A DNA stretch of 64,000 nt, taken from NCBI GenBank assembly GCA_965219955.1, contig OZ244799.1:3712001-3776000 (forward strand). Direction: 5' to 3'. Positions 1,857-23,165 of the stretch are shown here, one piece after another. Position 1 is the stretch's first letter. Every line of letters starts with the position of its first letter. Origin of the DNA: a bacterium. GTDB taxonomy: Bacteria > UBA8248. Under the pieces are notes generated by a model, which saw nothing but the letters and a program-made list of their open reading frames with translations, made no database searches and was not told where the DNA came from. Both the position numbers and the translations under genes were made by a program.

Positions 1857-2636
1857 ATGGAGAGAATAGTGTCCTGGCTCAAGTCGAACTCCTTGTCGGT
1901 TGTTTCACGATTGTTCGCTGTCTATTTCATTTGGGCGTTCCACATTCATGTAGGACTTCCGCCGACAAGGCCCTTGACACACACTGCAGCAGCTTATCTG
2001 GCGTTGTTTATCTTTTTCTTTGTTCTACCATTTGCGCAACGATTAAAGCTCGGGAAGATCATCGAGTTTGAAGCGAAAGTCGAACAAGTCCGGGCTGACA
2101 TAAAGGAGGTACGCACCGAAACACGGGAGTTGATATCCACAATGAGCGTTGCGGTTAATGCGATTTCTGCATCTATGAACCAAAGTGTGGTAGTGAATGT
2201 TGCAGCGTTGGAAGAAGAACGAGTAGTGGCGCGCGAACAGTTGTCAAGTGCCCTTGCCGAATCCCCGGATCTAACCAGAGAAGAGAGGGAAAATCTAGAA
2301 TACTTGAGAGCAGATAAATCGGACATACACTATGCACTTGCCCGCTTGAGAATGGATTTGGAGCGGGAGCTGCGAAGGATACTTGGCAAGCGGCTAGAAG
2401 CTGACGACCCGTCTCGGATGCGAGGCAGGTTTTTGTCAGCGCGGTCACTGTTTCAGCGACTTGGATCTGCGATTCCGCGCTATAAAAACATGGGAGATTC
2501 TTTCAAATACCTACTGCAGGTCTGCAATGCAGCAATTCACGGCCAAAGAATTCCAGAGAACATCGCCCACGATGCGATTGATATAGGGTTTCGCATCCTA
2601 CGAGAGTTAGAGAAAGAGAAAGCATTAGAGCAATAA
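1857..2636 (+). CDS. Membrane-anchored hypothetical protein with coiled coil and C-terminal HEPN/DUF4145-like helical domain
   Basis: Two N-terminal hydrophobic segments, then LARLRMDLERELRRI and LQVCNAAIHG (Rx4-6H-like, with Cys in place of Arg). Start set at ATG 1857. Confidence 0.5.
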   Translation: MERIVSWLKSNSLSVVSRLFAVYFIWAFHIHVGLPPTRPLTHTAAAYLALFIFFFVLPFAQRLKLGKIIEFEAKVEQVRADIKEVRTETRELISTMSVAVNAISASMNQSVVVNVAALEEERVVAREQLSSALAESPDLTREERENLEYLRADKSDIHYALARLRMDLERELRRILGKRLEADDPSRMRGRFLSARSLFQRLGSAIPRYKNMGDSFKYLLQVCNAAIHGQRIPENIAHDAIDIGFRILRELEKEKALEQ

Positions 2637-3735
2637 AGGGTTCAAATATCAGGATGTGCGAAGGCGCTCTTATACAACTATTTAGGTGTTCTGAGAACAA
2701 TATTTGATTTCTTGTCGAAAAGCTTGACCACAAATGACGTACAAGAAACGGAAGATAATACGTTTTCATTATTCGCAAATGGCCAGTTCGATCGTATTGA
2801 GTGTTGGTTTTGGAGTGTTCCGAATTACCTGATCAATTTCGTTTTCCAGACGGGACGGGACCATAGGTAATTATGCCTAAGAATAATCGTTCAAATTTGG
2901 TTTGTTAAGGGTGCGCGATTCGATGTGCGAATCTAAAAGTGCGGACCGCTGAAAGTAGGTTTTGGGTTCGCTTGGGTCGATCCGCCCCCCTTAATGGAGG
3001 TCTTTCAAGAGAGCCAAATCCTCCGGTAACTCTCGCAAGCGGTGTAAGGTATAAAGATTGATGAGGCGACGCCTGTTGGCAAATAGTGTGCATTGCAATG
3101 GCTGAAGTGTAATCCGGCCTGTGTCGCTGAATCAAAGTTGAGGGCCACCGAAGCAGGATCACAAGAAAGCTGTTGCGAGTTGGACTTCGGGAGAGGATTA
3201 CACAATAGTAAGTGTTCATACAGGCCGTGATGGCAGCACATCAACAACAGGAGTTCGGTGTCCTGTTTAAATAAAACTGGTTCAGCGGAATGCTTTTGCC
3301 GTTATCCCGGTTGGCAGGAACTTTAAGCAATTGCAGGGCATGTACAGCATTTCAATATGGCTCTTCAACTTATGGAGGTCGGTGTCAAACTAGATCCGGT
3401 CAGTGCGGAAGCCTACCCTATCACGGCTTGAGTGAACGCTTACACACAATATTCCGTCAGGAACCTACTAGAATACGTAGAAGTTTGAATTCCACCGCTT
3501 CCGTTTTGATTACAGATTGACGAAACCGAGTCCCCAACAAAACTCCAAAAAAACAAATACTCACAACAGTTTCAACAAACTACAAAGATTACTCCCCCGC
3601 TGGAAATCCCCGGCTGTCGGAAAACACGCGAAAGCGATTGTCTAACGGCAAAACGGGACCGACTCTTGGCGTCTCTGATCCGAAAACGGCCTATCGCTCC
3701 CGTGGATCGAGTCGTCCCGGCGATTGGGAGTACTT

Positions 3736-10048: not shown

Positions 10049-10597
10049 TTACTTGACGGTTCTGAAACACTTGGTAACTCGGTAGGGTTTGCCCGCGGTG
10101 GCGGAGTTCACCACGTCCAGCCCGTCCATTTTAATTTTGTCGTAACTGGCGATGTAGAGCCACTTGCCGCCTTCAAACACGATGTAATCCGAAAAATAGG
10201 ATTGGGTTGGGTATTCGGTGGCAATGCGGAGAATTTTGTAGCCGTGCCCCCGGCTGCGATGGTTGCAGGAGGCGGCGTAACGGAGGCCGCCGCTGCCCGT
10301 ATGCACCCGCTCATCTATTGTCATTCTAGCCCCCTCTCCGAGGTTGGCCCAGCCCCTAACGCTTTTCAAGGTCATCCCCCCGTTTCCGTTGGGTTTCAGG
10401 GTGATGGTTCTAATGTGGCGTTTGGTGGCTCCCGGAGTGAGGCAGGCCCAGCGTCCGTTGAGTTGCGGGTTGCACTCGGAGGCCACGTCGGCGATTTTCA
10501 CGGCCGGCCGGCCCGGCGGCTCGACGGCGGACGCGGCGCCGGCGATTGCCGCCACGGCGGCGAACGCGCAGAGTGTGGTGATCAGGTGTTTTTTCAT
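10049..10597 (-). CDS. Secreted Cys-rich protein, YAASCNHR family, paralog A1
   Basis: Signal peptide MKKHLITTLCAFAAVAAIAGAASA; ECNPQLNGRWAC, YAASCNHR, MDGLDVVNS. Confidence 0.75.
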   Translation of the reverse strand: MKKHLITTLCAFAAVAAIAGAASAVEPPGRPAVKIADVASECNPQLNGRWACLTPGATKRHIRTITLKPNGNGGMTLKSVRGWANLGEGARMTIDERVHTGSGGLRYAASCNHRSRGHGYKILRIATEYPTQSYFSDYIVFEGGKWLYIASYDKIKMDGLDVVNSATAGKPYRVTKCFRTVK

Positions 10598-10869
10598 CGT
10601 GATTCTCCCCCCGGTGAGCGCTCTGCAGCGCGGCGCAGTGGAACCGAAAGAATAAAGAAGAACTATACGGTTTTCGTGTGAGACAATCATGTGATGTTTC
10701 GTGAATTATATGTGTTTTCGGGGATATTCGCGGGGGCTGCGCATGCCGGGCGAGCGTTGCCCGTGCAGACTCAAGCCCCGGCGGCCGGAATGCGGGATCC
10801 GCCGGTAAAGGAGAAGGCGGCGGGAAAATGTTTTCCTTTCAATCGTTCGCCCCTCCCCGGGCAGGCGGT

Positions 10870-11463
10870 CTATCCGGCGTCCCGGACGCAGATTTCCCAA
10901 TAGTCGGGACGGGCCGGGCGGGAGGAGTTCTCCACGTCGTGGCCGTCCATGCGGGTGCCGTCGACAAACCTGCCGAAGGCCAATCTCCCGTCACTGCCGA
11001 CGATATAATCTTCAATGAGAATTTTTCCCTCCGACCGCCCGGCCATCCTGAAAATTTTGTAGCCATGGGTTTTCGTGCGGTGGTTACAGGAGGCGGCGTA
11101 GGGCCTGTTCTGTTCACTGCGCCGGAACTTCCCGTCGGCGACGAAGGTTTCTTGGATGTGGTGGCAATCCCAACCGCATAAAGCTCCTCCCCACCTCTTG
11201 ATAAGCCGGGCGGCTCCGCTCGCGTCGGTGTGCAAAGAGAGATTGAGACGCCTTCTGTCTCTAAATTGATCCGTACAAATCCACTCCCCGGCCATTTCGG
11301 GGTTGCACTCGTTGGCCGCGCTAGCGATTTGTCGGGCGGAGCGGTCCCGACGCTCCCCGGCGGACGCGGTCCCTGCGAAGAGGACGAGCGCGGCCGGCAA
11401 CGCCAGGATGAGGATGATGGATTTGCGCGGCGTGATTTTGCGCCTGGCGGCGTGTTCGGACAT
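10870..11463 (-). CDS. Secreted Cys-rich protein, YAASCNHR family, paralog A2
   Basis: RBS GAGGAGG; signal peptide; NECNPEMAGEWIC, YAASCNHRTKTHGYKIFRMA, MDGHDVENS. Confidence 0.75.
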   Translation of the reverse strand: MSEHAARRKITPRKSIILILALPAALVLFAGTASAGERRDRSARQIASAANECNPEMAGEWICTDQFRDRRRLNLSLHTDASGAARLIKRWGGALCGWDCHHIQETFVADGKFRRSEQNRPYAASCNHRTKTHGYKIFRMAGRSEGKILIEDYIVGSDGRLAFGRFVDGTRMDGHDVENSSRPARPDYWEICVRDAG

Positions 11464-12098
11464 GGTTTTCCCTCCTCGTGGTGCGCGTTCGAAGCCTGAA
11501 CCTCGTAGATACCCGTTGATTCTAGAGGGCCGCGGAGGGAAATCAAGCCCGCCCGGAGCCGAACGAAAGGACGGGCATCCGCTCATGGACGCCCGTTTTC
11601 CGGCCGGGAGAGCGGAAACGGCGCCGGGCCGGTTCCGCGCCGCCTCGTTCGGGGAAGGGCCGGGGCGCATGCCGGGCCCGGTTCCCCTTCGCCGCATTCG
11701 CGTTCAGTGAACCCGGAACGGGAGATCCGCCCACCCTCGTCTCCCGACGCACGACTCCCGGCGTTCCTCCCGCCTGCCCGCCGGCCGGCAGGCGGCGCCC
11801 GGCGCATTCTCCCCTGCCAGTCACCGTGCTTTTCAGGCGCCGGAACCCGGGAGCACGCCAGGGCGGCCGGACGGCGCGGCCGGGCGAGGAGGCGCCAGTT
11901 CCGTGGGTGCATCCGGCGCGGTTGCGCTCCCCGCATCGCGGGAACATGCAACCCCGGTGGAGGCTTTCGAATGGCGGCGAGTCCCCGGAAACAGGTATAA
12001 TCGAGACCTGTTGGAGAGCCGCAAACCCTCCGTGCGCGGTTCGGCCTCCCCGGACCCGTGACTGCGGGGGAGCCGGACGAACGAAAGGAGATTTCGCC

Positions 12099-12617
12099 AT
12101 GCGCCTCATCGTTTTTTTCCTGATGGTCCTTTTTCTTTCCACACCCGCACTCGCGCAGGACCAGAAAAGAGGATACCCCGTCAACGAGTGCAACCCCGTC
12201 CTCAACGGGGATTGGCTTTGCCGAAATGCCCAAAGCGGCAGGCATAGTCATAAGACTCTCTCTTTGAAAATCGACGGCAACGGGGTCGAGCGGCTGGTGT
12301 TCGAAAGCGGCGGAAGCTGTCGCGGCTGCCACACTGGCTCCGATAGCTACCTCGCCGACGGCCGCCGCCACGTCAATGAAGTGGGTATGAAGTACGCCGC
12401 CTCCTGCAACCACCGCACCAAGACCAAAGGCCATAAAATTTTCCGCATTGCCGCCCGAGGGAACGAAGGCAGTCTCATCATCATGGAGTACTGGATTATG
12501 AGCGACGGAAGGATGGTTACTGCCCGTTTTCGGGGCACCATGGACGGATGGGACGTTAAAAACTCCGACCGGGAGGCACAACCCTTTAACTACGATATTT
12601 GCGCTAAACTGGAATAA
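12099..12617 (+). CDS. Secreted Cys-rich protein, YAASCNHR family, paralog A3 (contains CRGCH)
   Basis: RBS AAGGAG; signal peptide MRLIVFFLMVLFLSTPALA; NECNPVLNGDWLC, SCRGCH, YAASCNHRTKT, GTMDGWDVKNSDR. Confidence 0.8.
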   Translation: MRLIVFFLMVLFLSTPALAQDQKRGYPVNECNPVLNGDWLCRNAQSGRHSHKTLSLKIDGNGVERLVFESGGSCRGCHTGSDSYLADGRRHVNEVGMKYAASCNHRTKTKGHKIFRIAARGNEGSLIIMEYWIMSDGRMVTARFRGTMDGWDVKNSDREAQPFNYDICAKLE

Positions 12618-12657
12618 CGGGACGGGGTTAAACCGCCCAAGGTGGAGGGGGCTTTCC

Positions 12658-12777
12658 GTGAAGACAAAACCCCTGGCCGCCGCCGCTTTAATTTTCTCCC
12701 TGCTGTTGGTTGACCCCGTCCCCGAAGCCAAAAGCGGGGACAGGGTCGGCGAAAAACCCAAATCCCTGCGCCTGTAA
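12658..12777 (+). pseudogene. Truncated 'gene B' stub (39 codons) after A3
   Basis: GGAGG RBS, GTG start, VKTKPLAAAALIFSLLLVDPVPEAKSGDRVGEKPKSLRL*; homologous to the stubs at 13671 and 14681. Confidence 0.5.
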
Positions 12778-13069
12778 CGGGCGGTAGCATGAACCTGCGA
12801 AAACCCCGCCGTATGGCCGGGACCGTCGCCGTTTGCCGCCGTTTCGCCCGCCTGGCGGGAAGCGGGCTGCAAAGCCCGGGCAACTGATCCTCGACCGGTT
12901 CGCGCGCCTCGTTCCATGCTTCCATCGCCGGCCCGGGAGCGGTATCCTGTATTCGTGCTCCGCTCCGCGCGACGTGCGGCGCACCGGGGCTCGTCGCCGC
13001 GTTAAACGGCCGCCGGGAGGCCCGGCCGCTTTGTCCGGTGCAGCGTCGCGCTGCAAGGGAGGGATTCCC

Positions 13070-13630
13070 ATGTCCATCAAATCAGCCGCCGGCATCGTCT
13101 TTGCCCTGGTCGTTTCCGCCTGCCCCCTCGCCTTAGGAACCGCGTCCGCCGCCGAACGAACGGACCGGCCCGCCAAAGAGGCCGCCGGCGCGGCCAACGT
13201 GTGCAGCCCCGTCCTCAACGGGGAGTGGATTTGCCGAAATGCCCAAAACGGCGAACTTTCGCGTGAGAACCTCTCTTTGGAAACCGACGGAAGCGGTGCC
13301 ACCCGGCTGGTCAAGAGATGGGGGGGAGCTAGCCGCGGCTCCCACGATATGAAGGCAACCTACGTTGCCGACGGCCGCCGCCGCGTCAACGAAGAAGGTG
13401 ATGATTACGCCGCCTCCTGCAACCACCGCACCAAGACCCAGGGCAATAAGATTTTCCGCATCGCCGAGCAGTTTACCTCGGGTAGGGCCGGAATGAAGGA
13501 GTACGTTATCATGGACGACGGAAGGATGCTTATTGGCGGATTTGGCGGAACCATGGACGGGTGGGACGTCAAGAACTCCGACCGGCCGCCCGAACCCGAT
13601 TGGTATTATGTATGCGCCAAGGAGGAATAA
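13070..13630 (+). CDS. Secreted Cys-rich protein, YAASCNHR family, paralog A4
   Basis: RBS GGGAGG; signal peptide MSIKSAAGIVFALVVSACPLALGTASA; same conserved blocks, with ASRGSH in place of SCRGCH. Confidence 0.8.
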   Translation: MSIKSAAGIVFALVVSACPLALGTASAAERTDRPAKEAAGAANVCSPVLNGEWICRNAQNGELSRENLSLETDGSGATRLVKRWGGASRGSHDMKATYVADGRRRVNEEGDDYAASCNHRTKTQGNKIFRIAEQFTSGRAGMKEYVIMDDGRMLIGGFGGTMDGWDVKNSDRPPEPDWYYVCAKEE

Positions 13631-14079
13631 CGGGGAAGGGGTTTGAACCGCCCAGGGAGGGGCAAAAGAATTGAGAAAACAACTGACCGCCGCCGCCCTC
13701 GTCTTCTCCCTAGCCGGTTTTCACTTCTCCCCCGAAGCGGGGTTTGGGACAGGGTCGGCGACAAGCTCAAATCCCTGCGCCCGTAACGGGCGGTGACGTG
13801 AACCTGCGCAAAACCCCGCCGTACGGCCGGGACCGTCGCGGTTCGCCGCCGTTTCGCCCGCTCGGAGGGAAGCGGACTATGAAGCCCGTACAACTGGCCG
13901 TCGACCGACTCGCGCGCCTCGTTCCATGCTTCCATCGCCGGCCCGGGAGCGGTATCCTCTATTCGTGCTTCGCTCCGGGCGACGTGCGGCGCACCGGGGC
14001 TCGTCGCCGCGTTAAACGGCCGCCGGGCGGCCCGGCCGCTTCGTCCGGTGCAGCGTCGCGCTAGAAGGGAGGAATTCTC

Positions 14080-14640
14080 ATGTCCGTCAAATCAGCCGCC
14101 GGCATCGTCTTTGCCCTGGTCGTTTCCGCCTGCCCCCTCGCCTCAGGAACCGCGTCCGCCGCCGAGCGAACGGACCGGCCCGCCAAAGAGGCCGCCGGCG
14201 CGGCCAACAAGTGCAACCCCGCTCTTAACGGGGATTGGATGTGCCGAAATGCCCAAACGGGCAAGCATAATCATCTGGCTCTCTCTTTGAAAATCGACGG
14301 CGGCGGGGCGGAGCTGCTAGTGGTCGGAGACGACGGGGCCTGTCGCGGTTGCCACACTAGCCCGTACAGCTTTCTCGCCGACGGACGCCGCCACCGCAAC
14401 GAAAGCGGTATAGAGTACGCCGCCTCCTGCAACCACCGCACCAAGACCAGGGGCCATAAAATTTTCCGTATCGCCCTCCAATTGGACTCGGGCAAGGCCG
14501 TCATCGAAGAGTACTGGATTATGAGCGATGGAAGGATAGTCATTGCCCGTTTTCGGGGCACCATGGACGGATGGGACGTTAAAAACTCCGACCGGGAGGC
14601 GCAACCCTATAGCTACGATATTTGCGCCAAACTGGAATAA
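14080..14640 (+). CDS. Secreted Cys-rich protein, YAASCNHR family, paralog A5 (A4/A3 mosaic)
   Basis: 5' end near-identical to A4, 3' end near-identical to A3; contains ACRGCH. Confidence 0.8.
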   Translation: MSVKSAAGIVFALVVSACPLASGTASAAERTDRPAKEAAGAANKCNPALNGDWMCRNAQTGKHNHLALSLKIDGGGAELLVVGDDGACRGCHTSPYSFLADGRRHRNESGIEYAASCNHRTKTRGHKIFRIALQLDSGKAVIEEYWIMSDGRIVIARFRGTMDGWDVKNSDREAQPYSYDICAKLE

Positions 14641-16455: not shown

Positions 16456-17613
16456 CTATTGTTTATATGCCCCGAAAGCGCCGATGAAGCTTCGGAGTTC
16501 ATCGTCTGTTTTCCCCCCGAACGTCCCGGCGATGGAAGCGGGTTGATCGGCCGCGCTCGCGCCGTTTCCGAATAACTTTCCGCCCCACCTGCCCGAGTAG
16601 CCGTTCGCGCTGGTGCCGCCCCTGAAATTCCCGCCTTGTCCAGTTCCGCTCGCTTGCATAATATTTGCGGACTCCAGCGTTAGGTCGGGCAGGGCAACGC
16701 CGCCATCCGTCCTGCCTTCCGTGGCACGTCCTGAGACGGTTCCCATCTCGGTCGAATCGCCGAAATTGGCTTCGAGGCTCACTTTAGCGGTGAAATTGTC
16801 GTATACCGGAGTAGCATCGGCGTTCGCCTTCATCATGTGTGTCCCGATCGCAGGACCCTCGTAGGCCGCCGTACCCGTGAGGACGGCGAGCCCGTCGTTG
16901 TTGAAGGGGTCGTTGCCGCTTGCCGCGCCGCCTAGCGTGAAACTGCCGCTGAATTCTCCAGTGTTTGAGTCCTTGAAAATATACAACCATGTTCCCAGGC
17001 TCAGATAATCCGCATCCCCGGTATTTTCGATGTCGGAATAGGCGTCCCAATTGAAAATGCCGTTGGATGACTCGCCGTGGACTTCCACCCCCTTCCAGCC
17101 CGCCGCCGGGACGCCGTCCAGCCTGTTTACCGATACATTCGGGTTTGTTGTGCTCGTGCTAAACGTTTGGCCGCTTCTTGTGTTTAGTCGCGTGTACGTG
17201 AAATGGAGTTCCCCGTTCTCGATAAACTCTGGAACGTAGGTAAATGAATCTAAGGTTCGGCCATCGAAAGAGTATGACGATTGCGTGGTGCTGGCGACTC
17301 CCTCGTTCAGCCATCCGGATGCTCTCGACCCAGCGGCTCTCAGTATGCGTATCGCCGCGCCGTTCGCCAGTTGCGGATTCTCATTGACTTCTTTCAGTAA
17401 AGATCCTGCGCGCATCGGCTGTTGCGGTGGCGTAGAACCGCCGCCGGTTCCACCGCCGGGCATCGGGTCCGGCGGCGGCATCACGGCGGCGCCGCCCCCA
17501 CCGCCACCGCCCCCACCGCAGCCCGCCAGCACGAGGGTGCAAACCAGCGTGAAGGTGAGCAGCAAAGATGAAAGTGCTGTTTGTTCCTTGAGTTGCTTTC
17601 TTGCTTTTGTCAT
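16456..17613 (-). CDS. Surface lipoprotein with transferrin-binding-protein (TbpB)-like C-terminal beta-barrel
   Basis: Lipobox LAGC plus poly-Gly/Pro linker; YLSLGTW, GTAAYEGPAIG, FTAKVSLEANF, GRWGGKLFG, IAGTFGG, FIGAFGA at the C-terminus. Confidence 0.75.
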   Translation of the reverse strand: MTKARKQLKEQTALSSLLLTFTLVCTLVLAGCGGGGGGGGGAAVMPPPDPMPGGGTGGGSTPPQQPMRAGSLLKEVNENPQLANGAAIRILRAAGSRASGWLNEGVASTTQSSYSFDGRTLDSFTYVPEFIENGELHFTYTRLNTRSGQTFSTSTTNPNVSVNRLDGVPAAGWKGVEVHGESSNGIFNWDAYSDIENTGDADYLSLGTWLYIFKDSNTGEFSGSFTLGGAASGNDPFNNDGLAVLTGTAAYEGPAIGTHMMKANADATPVYDNFTAKVSLEANFGDSTEMGTVSGRATEGRTDGGVALPDLTLESANIMQASGTGQGGNFRGGTSANGYSGRWGGKLFGNGASAADQPASIAGTFGGKTDDELRSFIGAFGAYKQ

Positions 17614-17676
17614 TTCGACTCCCTCCAATTGTGGAAAGCGGCGATCCGTCCGGCCGCAGATAAACCCGGCTTCGTC

Positions 17677-19069
17677 GCCACAAAGTCACGATTGAAGAGA
17701 GATGGATTCCCCGCCCGTTCCGCTCTCCAGGGGATGGAGAGAGGCTTCTATCCGGCGGGTAACCAGGAAACGTGCATCGTGGTTTTGTGGCAACAGCAAT
17801 GATCTTTGAAAACAACCGAAATGTCAAATGCTTGATTCATAAGGACGAACCGCCGTCGTGAGATGGCTGCCGCTTCCTGGGTGGTGGAAATTTCGGGGGA
17901 ATTCCCTGTGTTCGTTGCTGGAGATTTCCGGGAAATCGCGTGCAAGCAAGAATCAAGCTTTTTTCAGCAATGTTGTCGGTTTTCACATAAGTCGACTTTT
18001 GGAAGAATGTGTTTCGGTAAATTCAAGTTCCGCTCTCCAGGGGATGGAGAGAGGCTTCTATCCGGCGGGTAACCTAGAAACGAGCATCGTGGTTTTGTGG
18101 CAACAGGAGTGATCGGTGAAAACCGCCGGAATGTCAAATTCTTGATCCATAAGGACGAACCGCTGTCGTGAGATGTCTGCCGCCTCCCGGGTGGTGGAAA
18201 TTTCGGGGGAATCGCCTGCGTTCGTTGCCGGAGATTTCCGGGAAATCGCGTGCAAACAAGAGTCAAGCTTTTTTCAGCTATTTGTCCATTTTCACACAGG
18301 TCGACTTTTGGGAGAATGTGTTTCGCCGGATTCAGAATGAATTGAACGGGCGGGTCCATTATCCGGCGAAAAGGGTTGCTCCCCGGACTGTAGACGCTCC
18401 GGGCTGTTTGCCACAAACCACGATCGAAGAGATGGGCGCCCGCCTGTTCCGGCCCTCGGGAAACCGGGGGCCGTCATGTATTCAGTAGGCGGCATGTTCT
18501 CCGGATTTGATGAATGGACGTGTCTGTTTTCCGATGAAAAGGTTCCGCATCGGATCGATTCATTTTGTTTTCATGTCAATGAGAGAGGGCTGTTCGCCGG
18601 ACCGCGGACGCAGTCGGGCTGTTTGCCACAAAAACCACGATCGAAGAGATGGGTTTCCCGCCTATTCCGGCTCTCTTACGTCCAGTCGTTCAACCTGGAT
18701 CAATGAGGCCGTGTTGTATTCAGCGGGCAGCCCGAACGGGCTGACTGCCGTGGTTTTTGTGGCAAGGAAATGATCGGACATGACAACTGGCTTGTCAAAC
18801 GCGGGTGGACAAGGGGAGACGGGGGGACGTCGGAGTTTTTGTCGTTTCTCGAATGACGAGAAAGGCGGCGATTCGCCCGGCCACGGAAGCAGTCGCGCCT
18901 TTTGCCACAAAAATCACGATTCAGGAGATGAGTGTCCTGCCTTTCCATCTCCAGGGGGATGGAGATACGTCCTGTATTCGGCGGCTGCTTGGGTGGCGGC
19001 TGGTTTGAAGCTGTGTACTCGTGGTTTTGTCGCAAGAGAAATGATCGAACAAGAAATTCTGGATGTCAA
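17677..19069 (-). promoter_or_regulatory. Tandem array of five sigma70-like promoter + stem-closed structured leader/sRNA cassettes upstream of the TbpB-like gene
   Basis: Minus-strand TTGACA at 17822-27, 18132-37, 18574-79, 18793-98 and 19064-69. Each is followed after exactly 17 nt by GATCAT/GATCAC (degenerate in the 18574 copy), then by a segment closed by GCCACAAAA(A)CCACGAT...ATCGTGGTTTT(T)GTGGC (one arm missing or degenerate in the 18132 and 18574 copies). Confidence 0.65.
17718..18335. repeat. About 310-bp tandem direct duplication
   Basis: TTCCGCTCTCCAGGGGATGGAGAGAGGCTTCTATCCGGCGGGTAACC begins at 17718 and again at 18028, with similarity continuing to about 18335. Confidence 0.9.
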
Positions 19070-19164
19070 ACAAAATCGTGCGAGGGGGCGACGGCGCTTG
19101 AAGGAGACGGGCAAGGAATTACGCTCTCATATTTTTCTCGTACTCGGCAAACTCTCTCTCATCG

Positions 19165-19300
19165 AGGGTGTTGAAAAACCCCTCGTCGGGGGCATCGCTT
19201 TTACCCTTTTTGGTCTAGGGGGCTTTTTCAACAACCCTCCCTCCCCGGTCGGCAGCCCCTCCCTCCCCGGTCGGCGAACCCTCCCTCCCCGGTCGGGTTC
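19165..19300. repeat. Short MITE-like element (GTTGAAAAA...TTTTTCAAC) followed by three CCCTCCCTCCCCGGTCGG tandem repeats
   Basis: GTTGAAAAA 19170-78, TTTTTCAAC 19224-32; triplicated motif at about 19234-19296. Confidence 0.6.
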
Positions 19301-19400
19301 GACCCCACCATTGACACCGCTCCTCCCGCGTGAAAGCATCGGGGAAACTTTCATGGAATGGATGGATGCCGCCTCCCGCCTCTCGATAAGGAGGGCAAAG

Positions 19401-19997
19401 ATGATTCGGCGTATCGCTCGGTGTGCGGCCGCGGCATGTCTGGCGGTTTTTGCGGCGCTCGCGTTTTCTCCGCATCAGGCGCAAGGCATGGAAAAGCAAG
19501 TCGTCTTCATCAAGGCGTTTTATCCCCTGGATGAGCCGAGGTTTCACTGCATCGACATCCCGGGGCACCGCGACCGCGTGAGAACCACAGCCGCCCTTCT
19601 CGTGCACACCTGCAAGGAGGGCATCTGGAACCTCGATGGGCAGTTCGACCCCGCCGCCGTGGGGAAGGGCCAGCTCCGGATGCCCGAATACGACTTGTGC
19701 GTCGCGGCTGCTGCGGCAACCGACGGCGCGAAGCTCGTGCTCGAAAAATGCGGCGGCGCGGCCCTCCAGAACTGGCGTTTCGAGAACTACCGCCTGAGCT
19801 TGAAGGCGCATCCGGACAAGTGCATCACCATCGGTCCCGAGCCGTCGCGCCTCACGCGGGGCGGGCGCAGGCTGCCGAGCCGCCACATGGCGCGCTCCCT
19901 GGCCCTCGGGACGTGTTCGGAAGATGCGCTCGAGAGACAGCTATGGCGGCTGGAAAAACCCATGCAGCGCACCGGCTCCATCATGCCCTTCAAGTAG
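19401..19997 (+). CDS. Secreted ricin-B (beta-trefoil) lectin-like protein
   Basis: AAGGAGG RBS; signal peptide; HCIDIPG, LLVHTCK, LCVAA, LVLEKC, QNWRF, KCITIG, QLWRL repeats. Confidence 0.75.
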   Translation: MIRRIARCAAAACLAVFAALAFSPHQAQGMEKQVVFIKAFYPLDEPRFHCIDIPGHRDRVRTTAALLVHTCKEGIWNLDGQFDPAAVGKGQLRMPEYDLCVAAAAATDGAKLVLEKCGGAALQNWRFENYRLSLKAHPDKCITIGPEPSRLTRGGRRLPSRHMARSLALGTCSEDALERQLWRLEKPMQRTGSIMPFK

Positions 19998-20030
19998 GGT
20001 GAGACGCCCCTGCAAATGGATGCCTGAATC

Positions 20031-20290
20031 GCCGTCATTCCGGCGCATGCCGGAATCTAGGCGGGCGGGAATGGAAAAAAGCTATCATTCGGCGCTCCGA
20101 TCCGAGCGGCGGAATTCTCTCGCCTCCAGGTTTTCGCATCGGCTCTGGATTCCGGCATGCGCCGGAATGACGAATCATAGCCACGCTCGTCATGTGGGAG
20201 AATTTCGACCGTAGGGGCGGCCCCCCGTGGCCGCCCGTATTGAGGGGGTGCGCTTCATCAGGACAGGCACAGGGGCCTGTCCCTGCCATA
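20031..20290. repeat. REP-like palindrome cluster
   Basis: GTCATTCCGGCGCATGCCGGAATC / GATTCCGGCATGCGCCGGAATGAC pair plus GTAGGGGCGGCCCCCCGTGGCCGCCC and GGACAGGCACAGGGGCCTGTCCC. Confidence 0.75.
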
Positions 20291-20551
20291 TGATGCGAAG
20301 CTCATCATTCGTTAGGTTTTTCGATGTCACGACGAGGAGGACTCACGCCATGTTTTTCCGCAAAAACACGTCCACGAACAAACCATCTGCTTTCACGCCG
20401 GCGCCGCTCCTGGCGCTGGGGCCGGTGGGCTGCGGCGAGGCGTCTCGCGGGCGGGATTTCCTTGAGGACGCGTGCAATCGCTCCAGAAATTCTCCTCATA
20501 TAAGATGCGGCAAGAATTGCGCCGCTGGCGCATCTTCCTTTTTTTGTAGTC

Positions 20552-20747
20552 TTGACATATCCCATCTCATATCCCATCATTTTTGAAGCCACAAAAACTG
20601 CACGATCTCTGTTTGTTCTCTGAAGATGACGTTTTCTCTCCGCTGGGGAGCCAAACCACCTCTTCAATCGTGGTTTCTGTGGCGAAGAAGCCGAGTTGAT
20701 TCGTGGTCAGTTGAATCGCCTCTTCCCGCCATCGAGGAGAAGGAACA
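20552..20747 (+). promoter_or_regulatory. Sixth promoter/leader cassette, upstream of the autotransporter gene
   Basis: TTGACA 20552-57, 17 nt, CATCAT 20575-80, GCCACAAAAACTGCACGAT 20588...ATCGTGGTTTCTGTGGC 20667-83. The downstream leader is homologous to the TbpB-like gene leader. Confidence 0.65.
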
Positions 20748-23165
20748 GTGATCAAATCGAGAAGACAGCTTTACCGAAAAACATCTTTTTTGTTCATTTT
20801 ATTCTCACTTGCGTTATCCTTCGTCTTCGCGCTTTCGGGCTGCGGCGGAGGTGGCGGCGGCCCGACAACGGGCGCCCCGCCCGCCACGATGCCGGACCCA
20901 CCCGCCACGATGCCGGACCCGCCGGACGAGCCGCAAGCCCCGGAAATCGAACGGAGCCCGGTCGTGGTCGCGCCCCATCCCGTGCTCCCGGTGGGCGCGT
21001 CGCTCCCGAGGGAGGACGTATATCTCTCCACGCGGCCGGGCGTGCGGCAGCGTGTCCTGCTCGCCAGGACGGCGAACGCAGGCGCAAAGGCCGTCATCCT
21101 CTTCACGGGCGGCGACGGAACGCCGATTACGGTCCCGCAGAATGGAGGCATCCGCCTCACCGGCAATTTCCTGGTGAGAAGCTCAGCGCTCTTCGCCGAA
21201 GCGGGCTTCATCACCGCGGTCGTCGAATTGCCCCTGGACACGTCGTCCGTGAACCGCAGCGTGAGCAACGCTTACAGGCAATCGCCGATGCACCACACGG
21301 ACATACGCGCCGTGGTGGATTTTCTGGTGAGCGAGGGCGCGCGCGAGGTGTACCTCATCGGCACGAGCCGGGGCACGCTGTCCGTCGCGTATCTGGCGAC
21401 CGTGATGGCGCACCCGAACGTCAGTGGCTACGTTCTCACGGCGACCCTGGCCGAGAACCCGCAGGCCGTCCGGTCTTATGCGCCTCGCATTACGGACCCC
21501 GTCCTGATGGTGCATCACACGGACGACGGTTGCCATGTCACGAGATACGCCGACGCCCAGGCCATATTCGATTCCATTCCGGCGGGCACGCGCAAGGAGT
21601 TCATCTCCGTGAGCGGAGGGAGTCCGCCGATAGACACGAATCCCTGCCAGGCGCGGGCGCAGCACGGGTTCCTGGGCAAGGAGCATGAGGCGGTGGGAGG
21701 CATCGTCGAGTGGATGAACACGGGAACTGTGACGGAGACGAACCTGCTCACGGCGGATGACGCGGCCGCACCGCAGGAGGCGTGGCTCGCGCGCTTCGGG
21801 CGCGCGGCGGCGGAGCACGTCACCGGGGCTATCGAAGACCGGCTGCGCGGAACGCCGAGCTCGCGTCTCACGCTCGGCGGTCAGGATATCGATCTGGCAG
21901 GCTCCCCCCTTCCGCTGGCGGACGCAGATTCCGGTGCGCGACTCGCCGAAGGCATATTCGATGAGCGCAGCGGGGAGGCTTTCGCGGGACGCGAGATGTC
22001 GATGAGCGAGTTGCTGCTGGCGAGTTCCTTTCACCTGGCCTCCGCTGAGGGAGAGGACGCCGGCGGGGGCTGGTCGTTCTGGGGCGGCGCGGCGCGCTCG
22101 GGCTTCGACGCGAAAGAGGGCGCGCTCGCGCTCGACGGCGACGTCACGACCGCCACGCTGGGCTTCGATTTCGAGCGCGAGCGGTGGCTGGCCGGCGTGG
22201 CGCTCTCGCGCAGCGCGGGCGAGGGTGAGTTCCGCATCGGCGGCAACTGCGCTTCGGGCTGCGGCGGCGATCTGGAGAGCACGCTCACCGGCGCCTATCC
22301 CTATGCGCGCTATCGCTTCAGCGAGCGCCTCTCGGCCTGGGGAATGCTAGGCCACGGGCGCGGCGAGTTGACGCTCACCACGGGGGGAGGGAGTCCCGCC
22401 GAGACCGACATCGAGATGAACATGGCGTCGCTGGGCGCGCGCGGCGTGCTGCTGCCCGCTTTGAGCAAGGGAGATTTCGAACTAGCCGTTCGCTCGGACG
22501 CGCTGATGACGTGGACGAGTTCCGATGAGACGGAAAGTCTCGCCGAGGCCGAAGCGGAGACGAGCCGCCTGAGGCTCACGCTCGAAGCCTCGCGTGAGAT
22601 CGGGCTCGACTCGGGCGCGAGTCTCACGCCCTCGCTGGAAGTGGGCTTGCGCTACGACGGGGGCGACGCCGAGACGGGAGCCGGCGTCGAGGTCGGCGGC
22701 GGGCTTCGCTACGCGGGTTCGGGCTTCACGGTACGGGTGAACGCCCGCGGCCTGCTCGCGCATGCCGACAGCGATTATGAGGAGTGGGGCGTGAGCGGCT
22801 CGGTGCGCCTCGCTCCGGGCGAGGGGGGGCGCGGCTTGTCCATGCGGCTGGGTTCGTCCTGGGGCGCCCCGGCGGGTGGAGCGAACGGGCTCTGGAGCGG
22901 GCGCAGCGCGGTGGGGCTGCTCAAGAGCGGAGAATTCGACCCGGGCGCGCGCCTCGACGCGGAGGTGGGCTACGGTCTGGACGGCATGGGCGGCCTCCTC
23001 ACCCCCTACGGCGGCGTGTCGGTCTCGGAAGCGGCGCAGAGCTACCGCGCGGGCGGACGCTTCCGTCTCGGGGAGCGTTTGAGCATGAGCCTGGAGGGCG
23101 AGCGCCGCGAAGGTGCGAATGTCGTCGACCACGGCCTGGCGCTTCACGGCTCCCTGCGCTGGTAG
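20748..23165 (+). CDS. Lipoprotein autotransporter with alpha/beta-hydrolase passenger
   Basis: Lipobox LSGC plus poly-Gly and PATMPDP repeats; ILFTGGDG and YLIGTSRGTLS (GxSxG); AWLARFGR linker helix; C-terminal beta-barrel ending in LRW. Confidence 0.85.
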   Translation: MIKSRRQLYRKTSFLFILFSLALSFVFALSGCGGGGGGPTTGAPPATMPDPPATMPDPPDEPQAPEIERSPVVVAPHPVLPVGASLPREDVYLSTRPGVRQRVLLARTANAGAKAVILFTGGDGTPITVPQNGGIRLTGNFLVRSSALFAEAGFITAVVELPLDTSSVNRSVSNAYRQSPMHHTDIRAVVDFLVSEGAREVYLIGTSRGTLSVAYLATVMAHPNVSGYVLTATLAENPQAVRSYAPRITDPVLMVHHTDDGCHVTRYADAQAIFDSIPAGTRKEFISVSGGSPPIDTNPCQARAQHGFLGKEHEAVGGIVEWMNTGTVTETNLLTADDAAAPQEAWLARFGRAAAEHVTGAIEDRLRGTPSSRLTLGGQDIDLAGSPLPLADADSGARLAEGIFDERSGEAFAGREMSMSELLLASSFHLASAEGEDAGGGWSFWGGAARSGFDAKEGALALDGDVTTATLGFDFERERWLAGVALSRSAGEGEFRIGGNCASGCGGDLESTLTGAYPYARYRFSERLSAWGMLGHGRGELTLTTGGGSPAETDIEMNMASLGARGVLLPALSKGDFELAVRSDALMTWTSSDETESLAEAEAETSRLRLTLEASREIGLDSGASLTPSLEVGLRYDGGDAETGAGVEVGGGLRYAGSGFTVRVNARGLLAHADSDYEEWGVSGSVRLAPGEGGRGLSMRLGSSWGAPAGGANGLWSGRSAVGLLKSGEFDPGARLDAEVGYGLDGMGGLLTPYGGVSVSEAAQSYRAGGRFRLGERLSMSLEGERREGANVVDHGLALHGSLRW

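Follow-up and report, generated by a model that had tools for sequence, protein, structure and literature searches.

The window analyzed here is a 64-kb stretch of a bacterial genome (lineage UBA8248; assembly GCA_965219955.1, contig OZ244799.1, positions 3,712,001 to 3,776,000 of the forward strand), and coordinates are those of the window unless a genome position is named. Between two divergent lipoprotein genes, the window carries an array of six units, each consisting of a promoter, in one case degenerate, and a structured RNA element. The array occupies 17677-20683, as a preliminary description of this DNA had proposed from its letters, and is well beyond chance expectation. The units belong to a family of structured RNAs that is multicopy and promoter proximal; this part of the preliminary description is borne out by covariation and by copies found genome-wide. 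Five units (D, C, B, A', and A) lie on the minus strand and one (E) on the plus strand. The helices P1, P2, P3, and outer stem and the joiner J named in the following list are elements of the RNA structure set out in the next section.

16456-17613, minus strand: lipoprotein gene after unit A; ATG start, 385 amino acids (aa), lipobox LAGC, no Pfam match
17614-17637, minus strand: ribosome-binding region of this lipoprotein gene; CCACAAUUGGAGGGAG, 6 nt, AUG
17657-17792, minus strand: unit A, the leader of the lipoprotein gene; diverged core (GGAUAGAA / GGAAC)
17687-17704, minus strand: anti-Shine-Dalgarno box of unit A; CAUCUCUCUUCAAUCGUG, made up of J and the start of the P1 3' strand
17799-17827, minus strand: promoter of unit A; exact TTGACA-N17-NATCAY
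18027-18101, minus strand: unit A', a truncated 5' half running from the P1 5' arm to GGAAC
18109-18137, minus strand: promoter of unit A'; exact TTGACA-N17-NATCAY
18390-18525, minus strand: unit B; core and 3' arm (18410-18424) kept, P1 5' arm lost
18546-18579, minus strand: degenerate promoter of unit B; TTGACA at 18574-18579, no -10 box, promoter score 0
18606-18764, minus strand: unit C, an intact copy with both outer-stem strands, P2, the AAUACAA/GAAUA loop, and a long P3; no gene after it
18770-18798, minus strand: promoter of unit C; exact TTGACA-N17-NATCAY, 10/12 consensus positions
18885-19034, minus strand: unit D, a degenerate copy; P1 arms 19018-19034 and 18904-18920 kept, P2 broken
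19041-19069, minus strand: promoter of unit D; TTGACA, 17 nt, GATCAT, 10/12 consensus positions
20552-20580, plus strand: promoter of unit E; TTGACA, 17 nt, CATCAT
20587-20703, plus strand: unit E, a reduced copy; P1, CU-rich joiner, and short hairpin kept, core loop lost
20748-23165, plus strand: lipoprotein gene after unit E; GTG start, 805 aa, lipobox LSGC, no Pfam match

Exact sites of the form TTGACA-N17-NATCAY number five in the window (four on the minus strand and one on the plus strand), all inside the array region. Shuffles of the window are expected to contain 0.04 such sites, and five were reached in 0/100 of them. The sixth TTGACA (18574-18579, minus strand) had been described as degenerate, and it does lack a -10 box. 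A scan with the promoter consensus returned 4 promoter-like sites, compared with 1.0 +/- 0.9 expected. The arm motif, at up to three mismatches, occurs 4 times (0.18 expected); its gapped form occurs 8 times in the entire 4.28-Mb genome, always within 17677-20683, while the reversed control pattern occurs 0 times in the same genome. All four complete arm pairs that had been proposed were recovered (17677-17791, 18625-18763, 18904-19034, and 20588-20683). The arms are inverted repeats of 15-19 nt separated by 95-140 nt, with one mismatch in the GCCAC of the unit D 5' arm and a 2-nt insertion in the 5' arm of unit E. The promoter hexamers lie outside the inverted repeats, 5-7 nt upstream of the first arm. 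Units A, B, C, and D do contain the interior boxes that had been described as shared (CCGCYGRATA, a hairpin, GGAAYRGGCRGG, and CATCTC), but the core boxes are absent from unit E.

The units differ in how well they are preserved. Two covariance models were used to score them: R1, built from 16 copies of the genus, and R2, a second model. Unit C reaches 102.7 bits with R1 and 110 bits with R2, has a fold z-score of -5.2, and retains a perfect 17-bp P1 (18623-18639 with 18749-18765; an inverted repeat of 100% complementarity). Unit A scores 51.7 bits (R1) and 69.4 bits (R2), with a fold z-score of -4.56. Lower R1 scores were obtained for the partial unit B (45.5 bits; z-score, -0.61), for unit E (20.7 bits, E value of 0.94 genome-wide; z-score, -3.07), and for unit D (19.8 bits over 18885-19026, E value of 0.009; z-score, -1.47), in which 76% of positions are identical in four relatives. 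Unit A' lies inside a 255-nt duplication of the unit A region (91% identity). All units have one P1 sequence in common, of which B holds only the 3' arm and A' only the 5' arm. No terminator-like site was found on the minus strand inside the array; read-through is therefore possible, and because the P1 sequence is common to all units, read-through transcripts could pair across units.

A conserved element of about 58 nt (GTGTGAAAAT..CAAATAGCTGAAAAAAGCTTGA..) was also observed at 18254-18311 and 17945-18001, upstream of promoters A and A'. It recurs at genome position C1:3689349-3689406 and in more than 10 sister species (82-100% identity).

Structure and distribution of the RNA family

On the transcript strand, each complete element runs in the order P1 5' strand, linker, outer-stem 5' strand, P2, AAUACAA, P3, GAAUA, second strand of P2, a CU-rich joiner (J, the CATCTC box named above), P1 3' strand, 1-3 nt, and outer-stem 3' strand, for a total length of 120-190 nt. 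P1 is 15-25 bp long, and its sequence differs from locus to locus, with 45 distinct P1 5' strands among 52 sequences. The 5' strand of the outer stem (GUCGGGCUG) lies inside P1, and its partner (CAGCCCGGC) lies just 3' of P1. In copies found elsewhere, the interior is that of unit C and the arm sequences are wholly different; this constancy of the interior next to differing arms was what first pointed to selection for a helix formed by the arms.

Covariation, which the preliminary description had proposed to test, supports all four helices (P1, P2, P3, and the outer stem). In the 52 aligned sequences, 92.2% of cells pair, compared with 72.7% in shuffles, and the observed value was reached in 0/500 shuffles. 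Pairs changed on both sides were found at 18/18 positions of P1, 4/6 of P2, and 8/8 of P3. The outer stem, which is outside the model, has 89.8% paired cells and 4/8 pairs changed on both sides; in slid controls, 33-45% of cells pair. Cells with G-U outnumber those with A-C in every helix (P1, 74:27; P2, 48:1; P3, 17:6; outer stem, 63:13; total, 202:47), and this excess on the transcript strand indicates that pairing takes place at the RNA level and on that strand. In having a conserved structured domain with covariation upstream of open reading frames (ORFs), the family shows one feature of riboswitches (ligand-sensing leaders).

A sigma-70-like match of at least 9/12 positions, with a -10 box ending 3-10 nt before the start of the model, precedes 14/41 instances of the element, compared with 0/205 control windows; for the organism's own genome, the count is 11/15. 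Given this spacing before P1, transcripts should begin at the base of the helix, and transcription is predicted to start at the first base of P1.

Several known motifs were considered for the element and rejected. An HDV (hepatitis delta virus)-like ribozyme topology does not fit, as P1 is far too long; the conserved loop lacks the GGA of a CsrA site and is too large for a k-turn, and no GTTRRRY of attC sites is present. A hairpin formed by the outer-stem 3' strand with downstream sequence reaches at least 5 bp in 23/30 cases, but the individual hairpins are mostly no better than those of shuffles.

The family is abundant in the window's genus and patchy beyond it. A BLAST search of the array against 61 genomes matched 18, all from this genus (17/22 sister species and the organism's own genome, G000), and pieces of unit C matched elsewhere as well, including two more sites in the own genome. 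Within that genome, R1 gave 17 matches at an E value of <=1, of which about 13, at nine loci, are credible. Tandem copies occur at four of its loci, the window array among them, and in an Acidobacteriota genome (G065). R2 matched 24/51 Nitrospinota genomes when G000 is counted; when G000 is set aside, the matches divide into 20/22 sister species of the genus and 3/28 genomes outside it. Five genomes from other phyla hold 11, 6, 1, 4, and 5 copies by the same model.

To these searches can be added a scan for the exact 18-nt core pattern, with one genome per species, which returned 78 loci; at 50 of them, the 3' half of the core was also recognizable by a simple test, and four further loci (L072, L076, L079, and L096) were later matched by covariance model. 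The records are labeled Nitrospinota, Pseudomonadota (alpha and gamma), Acidobacteriota, Gemmatimonadota, Verrucomicrobiota, and Tectimicrobiota; the phylum assignments given here follow these labels, and because the pattern selects identical cores, the spread is a lower bound and biased. Metagenome contigs contributed 42 exact-core loci, 12 of which fit R2, and the viral contigs scanned gave a single exact-core match, which did not fit R2 (0/1). The window stretch itself is present almost whole (share, 0.97) in a run labeled sponge metagenome and in part in a second run, from a related strain. A text search of the literature retrieved no description of the extended family, although such a search cannot prove that none exists.

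The family had been called undescribed. This holds insofar as no Rfam family reaches its threshold on the window, the region, or the family copies; the core architecture and loop sequences, however, are those of sRNA-Xcc1 (RF02221), where sRNA stands for small RNA. RF02221 has 0 matches in the window at its gathering threshold (53 bits) and 0 in 17400-21000 at an E value of <=10, and at that E value the best copies of the own genome and genus give none. Among 20 loci from other phyla, 6 score 26.9-29.9 bits, and the score rises to 31 bits for a compact member, whose alignment has the closing stem, P2, AAUACAA, hairpin, GAAUA, and CACC tail in register. The alignments cover model positions 1-87 with the elements in order (closing stem, P2, loop, and short hairpin), and RF02221 is the sole Rfam family that recurs on these elements. 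Searched genome-wide, its matches coincide with the present elements in 7/8 cases in G061, 2/3 in G065, and 0/2 in G064; G000 and G062 yielded no match at all, and no match in the five genomes searched reached 53 bits. Within the array, units C and B have these RF02221-like elements, units A and D have diverged forms of them, and unit E lacks them. The family is not a member of RF02221 by the Rfam criterion, but it has the core architecture of sRNA-Xcc1.

The likeness extends to a 9-bp GC-rich closing stem (GUCGGGCUG/CAGCCCGGC here and GgCcGGggG/CccCCgGcC in the model), a 6-bp P2, identical loops of AAUACAA on the 5' side and GAAUA on the 3' side of a short hairpin, and a CACC(C) tail. The two also differ. 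Our family scores 25-31 bits against the threshold of 53, and the window units score nothing at an E value of <=10. It adds a P1 of 15-25 bp whose 3' strand takes the place of the second hairpin of Xcc1, its P3 is often much larger, and its length is 120-190 nt as opposed to 88. Carriage of Xcc1 on integron cassettes, transposons, or plasmids is reportedly the subject of a 2011 paper by Chen et al., going by its title. With regard to gene context, Xcc1 lies upstream of symE in Xanthomonas integron cassettes in a passage of one preprint (10.1101/2025.06.18.660453) and upstream of the gene for an ORF6N protein in APSE phages in a passage of another (10.1101/2020.03.17.996009). In the present family, genes for exported proteins follow instead of symE, and no integron context was seen.

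Downstream genes and the ribosome-binding region

In most copies, the first ORF begins 15-80 nt downstream of the element. In the five genomes from other phyla, 21/27 copies precede a signal-peptide-like N terminus, compared with a background of 652/2,979 ORFs (21.9%) under the same rule; 4 do not, and 2 lack a nearby ORF. In the own genome, 6/15 copies precede a signal-peptide-like ORF (2512365, 3143486, 1232812, 2358948, and units A and E), 5/15 precede an ORF scored as not signal-peptide-like, and 4/15 have no ORF of at least 60 aa starting within 160 nt. Of the nine own-genome copies not credited with such an ORF, 2358665, 1564561, and units C and B are each followed by another copy, and 3669345 is solitary. 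The association with surface lipoproteins that had been suggested for the array thus holds for this organism, where lipoprotein genes follow, but is too narrow for the family, which precedes signal-peptide proteins generally in at least six phyla by record label. Pfam models for trypsin, reprolysin, subtilase, and PPC domains matched 4 of 21 downstream proteins, and the other 17 matched nothing; a PDB sequence search with the 385-aa lipoprotein gave weak matches only (E values of 0.25-0.8). The downstream genes have no common metabolic theme, and their common destination is export.

The gene for the 805-aa lipoprotein contains a 21-nt tandem repeat (20876-20917) that encodes PPATMPD twice. Contigs from two runs carry one extra copy, and either the repeat number varies or the assembly has collapsed it.

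J and the P1 3' strand together show complementarity to the ribosome-binding region of the next gene. At 20 loci, the cognate duplex has a mean energy of -16.43 kcal/mol, compared with -14.18 (standard deviation, 0.72) for within-genome permutations, of which a fraction of 0.0011 reach the observed value. The P1 5' strand has no such complementarity to the ribosome-binding region (permutation p, 0.986). The pairing is bipartite: J pairs with the Shine-Dalgarno (SD) sequence, and the base of the P1 3' strand pairs with a short upstream copy of P1 5' sequence. In unit A, the anti-SD box and the ribosome-binding region of the lipoprotein gene can form a 15-bp duplex of -19.1 kcal/mol; for unit E, the duplex with its own ribosome-binding region has -16.4 kcal/mol. 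A duplex of 12-17 bp is kept in 8/8 orthologues of unit A, as judged from per-sequence duplexes, which were used instead of the MAFFT alignment of the orthologues because the latter is too shifted near the ribosome-binding site. Compensatory changes were found in one orthologue (G014), where J has UUG in place of AAU and the sequence next to the ribosome-binding site has UAA in place of AUU, and in another (G021) a wobble pair is changed to a Watson-Crick pair. Two folds of unit A are nearly equal in energy, the P1-closed fold at -69.7 kcal/mol and the SD-sequestered fold at -70.7 kcal/mol. Because J and the P1 3' strand are complementary to the SD region, the P1 5' strand and the ribosome-binding site would be rivals for one partner.

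Across the genus, hardly any variation is seen in the stand-alone copy at 3669345. Downstream of it (genome C1:3669483-3669540; loci L018/L039), we observed a second near-copy of the P1 3' strand (GGAUUGUAUGGG), with which the P1 5' strand of this copy may pair instead. It overlaps an SD-like GGGAGGA and the AUG of a semiconserved 6-codon mini-ORF, MG(H/Q/R)A(A/S)S, across the genus.

The region that contains the array had been taken for empty of genes. It is not, as it holds a lectin ORF and multicopy repeats (19155-19300 and 19974-20324), which are listed here.

19155-19271: second repeated element, adjoining the 22-nt repeats; contig depth 40-125 compared with a baseline of 12-27
19233-19296: three tandem 22-nt repeats (AACCCTCCCTCCCCGGTCGG)
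19401-19997: ricin-type beta-trefoil lectin ORF with signal peptide, between two divergent leader arrays; Pfam PF00652 (Ricin_B_lectin), E value of 2e-08
20033-20172 (wider extent, 19974-20324): palindromic element with 28-nt arms of 96% complementarity (CGTCATTCCGGCGCATGCCGGAATCTAG and its complement)

The lectin ORF has its own promoter-like site (TTGACA-17-AAGCAT) and no leader element. The palindromic element is extremely multicopy, with a summed metagenome contig depth of 2,000-3,500 against the baseline of 12-27 and many variant joints, and it looks like a repetitive extragenic palindromic (REP) or miniature inverted-repeat transposable element (MITE)-like repeat. Farther away, at 10049-14640, five paralogous small signal-peptide ORFs lie on both strands and carry the motifs ECNP..NG.W.C and YAASCNHR.KT.G.KIFRIA; the genome covariance search placed no copy of the leader family in front of them.

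Candidate functions of the leader family

We consider it somewhat probable that each unit combines a sigma-70-type promoter with a cis-acting 5' leader RNA that acts as a translational switch. The P1 5' strand and the ribosome-binding site would compete for J and the P1 3' strand, such that a closed P1 would leave the ribosome site free and an open P1 would lead to its sequestration. The balance would be set, across a regulon of exported-protein genes, by one shared signal received by the Xcc1-like conserved core, be it a small molecule, a protein, or an RNase. The structure, the distribution, the gene association, and the complementarity are observed; transcription, switching, and the trigger are the parts of this scheme that we infer. 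The array would then represent duplicated promoter-leader modules, in which units A and E would control the two divergent lipoprotein genes, unit C would be an intact module without a gene, and units D, B, and A' would be degenerate or truncated.

A number of observations weigh against a switch of this kind. The alignment of P1, P2, and P3 was fitted to the model, which favors pairing. P1 and the outer stem cross, so that they are either alternatives or a pseudoknot, and this crossing leaves the role of the conserved core without explanation. Minimum-free-energy folds of 11 leaders sequester the ribosome-binding site inconsistently, and when P1 is forced in unit A, the ribosome-binding site still pairs, in a weak local hairpin. 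The cognate duplex ranks first among 20 for only 3 loci, and some duplexes are poor (-7.8 kcal/mol at 3143486). J is pyrimidine rich (mean, 67%), yet no more than 16/51 sequences have J as their best anti-SD window. On the side of the genes, start codons were picked by hand from ORFs and SD-like sequences rather than by a gene caller, and the count of 21/27 is inflated by paralogues, since the genes after five of the copies belong to a single paralogous family and two copies are duplicates. Finally, copies that lack a gene cannot act as a cis switch; these are unit C, the conserved copy at 3669345, and three copies in a genome labeled Candidatus Entotheonella.

Comparison with established leader RNAs shows resemblance in part. 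Like a translational riboswitch or leader, the element has a conserved structured domain adjoining the promoter, and, in the proposed switch, two mutually exclusive pairings would decide access to the SD sequence; its tandem copies are reminiscent of tandem riboswitches (PMC9481103). Here, in contrast, each tandem copy has its own promoter, the genes have export rather than a pathway in common, neither alternative helix includes the conserved core, and any ligand is hypothetical. The ompA leader is a 5' stabilizer hairpin at the start of its mRNA. The present family similarly places a helix at the predicted first transcribed base of envelope-protein mRNAs, but this helix encloses a conserved domain of 100 nt, and the ribosome-binding site provides another partner for its 3' strand.

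Such a stabilizer hairpin is one form of a constitutive module that does not switch, which could also be an RNase III site or a put-like antitermination RNA and which would travel with horizontally acquired exoprotein genes. We regard this as improbable, even though a number of features are in keeping with it: the helix at the predicted +1 position, as in ompA-type hairpins; a P1 whose length and unconstrained sequence resemble those of double-stranded RNA substrates; a core sequence kept across six phyla by record label, as would suit a universal partner; the patchy occurrence in Nitrospinota (20/22 in one genus versus 3/28 outside); and the absence of a common metabolic theme among the downstream genes. 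A constitutive module leaves the complementarity of J and the P1 3' strand and the compensatory change in G014 unexplained, and the model did not recognize the one viral contig that carries the exact core. An independent trans-acting sRNA deserves more weight, although we still judge it unlikely. On this account, the units, or at least those without genes (unit C and 3669345), would be sRNA genes of the sRNA-Xcc1 kind, the array would be a cluster of such genes, and the position before genes would be secondary, as in sRNAs derived from 5' untranslated regions. A passage in PMC2996969 describes sRNA-Xcc1 of Xanthomonas campestris as an RNA of about 88-100 nt, detected by Northern blotting and end mapping, and a passage in PMC12189769 describes five tandem Xcc1 homologues about 380 nt apart in Xylella fastidiosa Temecula1, all detected by RNA sequencing, a layout much like that of the array. 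Unit C is intact and is the top-scoring unit in the arrays of seven relatives (101-121 bits), and 3669345 is nearly invariant in spite of having no ORF of at least 60 aa within 160 nt. The units are not followed by a terminator, however, most copies run into an ORF 15-80 nt downstream, and a complementarity that is specific to each locus and directed at its own ribosome-binding site favors action in cis. In addition, the claim that Xcc1 acts in trans is taken from the title of a paper.

The preliminary description had also named relic leaders and invertible segments as alternatives. If the gene-less and partial units were relics of leaders whose genes have been deleted, the array would have no function of its own. 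Units A', B, and D fit this idea, as A' is a 5' half, B lacks the 5' arm and the -10 box, and P2 is broken in D; furthermore, the stretch from B to A' is poorly conserved in relatives (0.20-0.41 identical, with 0.20-0.37 for the A' segment itself), and in a related strain, from a run labeled sponge metagenome, 3,274 other letters replace 93 nt at 18493-18587, between B and C. Unit C fits poorly, being intact, with a perfect 17-bp P1 and a 10/12 promoter, and the best-scoring unit in every orthologous array examined. By covariance matches, the order D, C, (B), A recurs in orthologous loci of seven species, and the D-C block, spacers included, is 73-84% identical in four relatives; because the spacers are as conserved as the units, differential conservation does not single out the RNAs. 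Tandem copies at three other loci of the own genome and in G065 likewise speak against decay, and we consider an array of relics quite improbable. Still less credible, to the point of being very improbable, is that the inverted repeats function at the DNA level, whether in invertible segments or as the termini of a mobile element. The arms are indeed long inverted repeats (15-19 nt, 95-140 nt apart), and the family is multicopy. The promoter, however, lies outside the repeats, whereas invertons have repeats that flank the promoter; the arms covary between loci with a strand-specific G-U excess (74:27); and the orientation of the interior relative to promoter and gene is constant. No inversion joint in 17677-19034 appears among the joints listed for contigs of four runs (a list of all but five), which is weak evidence, as contigs drop rare variants; one joint of low support (17514 to 18604; side, 24) was set aside.

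Beyond the translational switch at single loci, it is possible, although we remain doubtful of the proposal as a whole, that in at least six phyla exported proteins form a post-transcriptional regulon governed by one promoter-proximal leader family, built from an Xcc1-like receptor core, a 5' clamp helix of free sequence, and an anti-SD joiner. The regulon would include lipoproteins, secreted proteases, and many proteins without a known family. As part of the same tentative proposal, the core would sense one common signal, either a new riboswitch ligand (a second messenger or a host-derived compound) or a universal RNA-binding partner, and the choice of promoter in tandem arrays would alter the ratio of 5' to 3' P1 strands and thereby preset translation of the downstream lipoprotein.

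If this regulon exists, sRNA-Xcc1 would be a minimal cis-regulatory member of the same superfamily and not a classical trans-acting sRNA, and the architecture of sRNA-Xcc1, which is annotated in many genomes, integrons, and phages, would be given a function. The family would be a widespread, uncurated class of leader RNA, with 1-15 copies per genome where it is found, and would provide an orphan receptor domain, opening the way to a search for its ligand or partner. Expression of exported proteins would be tied together across distant phyla by a testable mechanism, the competition of P1 with the anti-SD helix. For little-studied uncultured symbionts, copies of the leader would mark candidate surface and secreted proteins that are regulated together.

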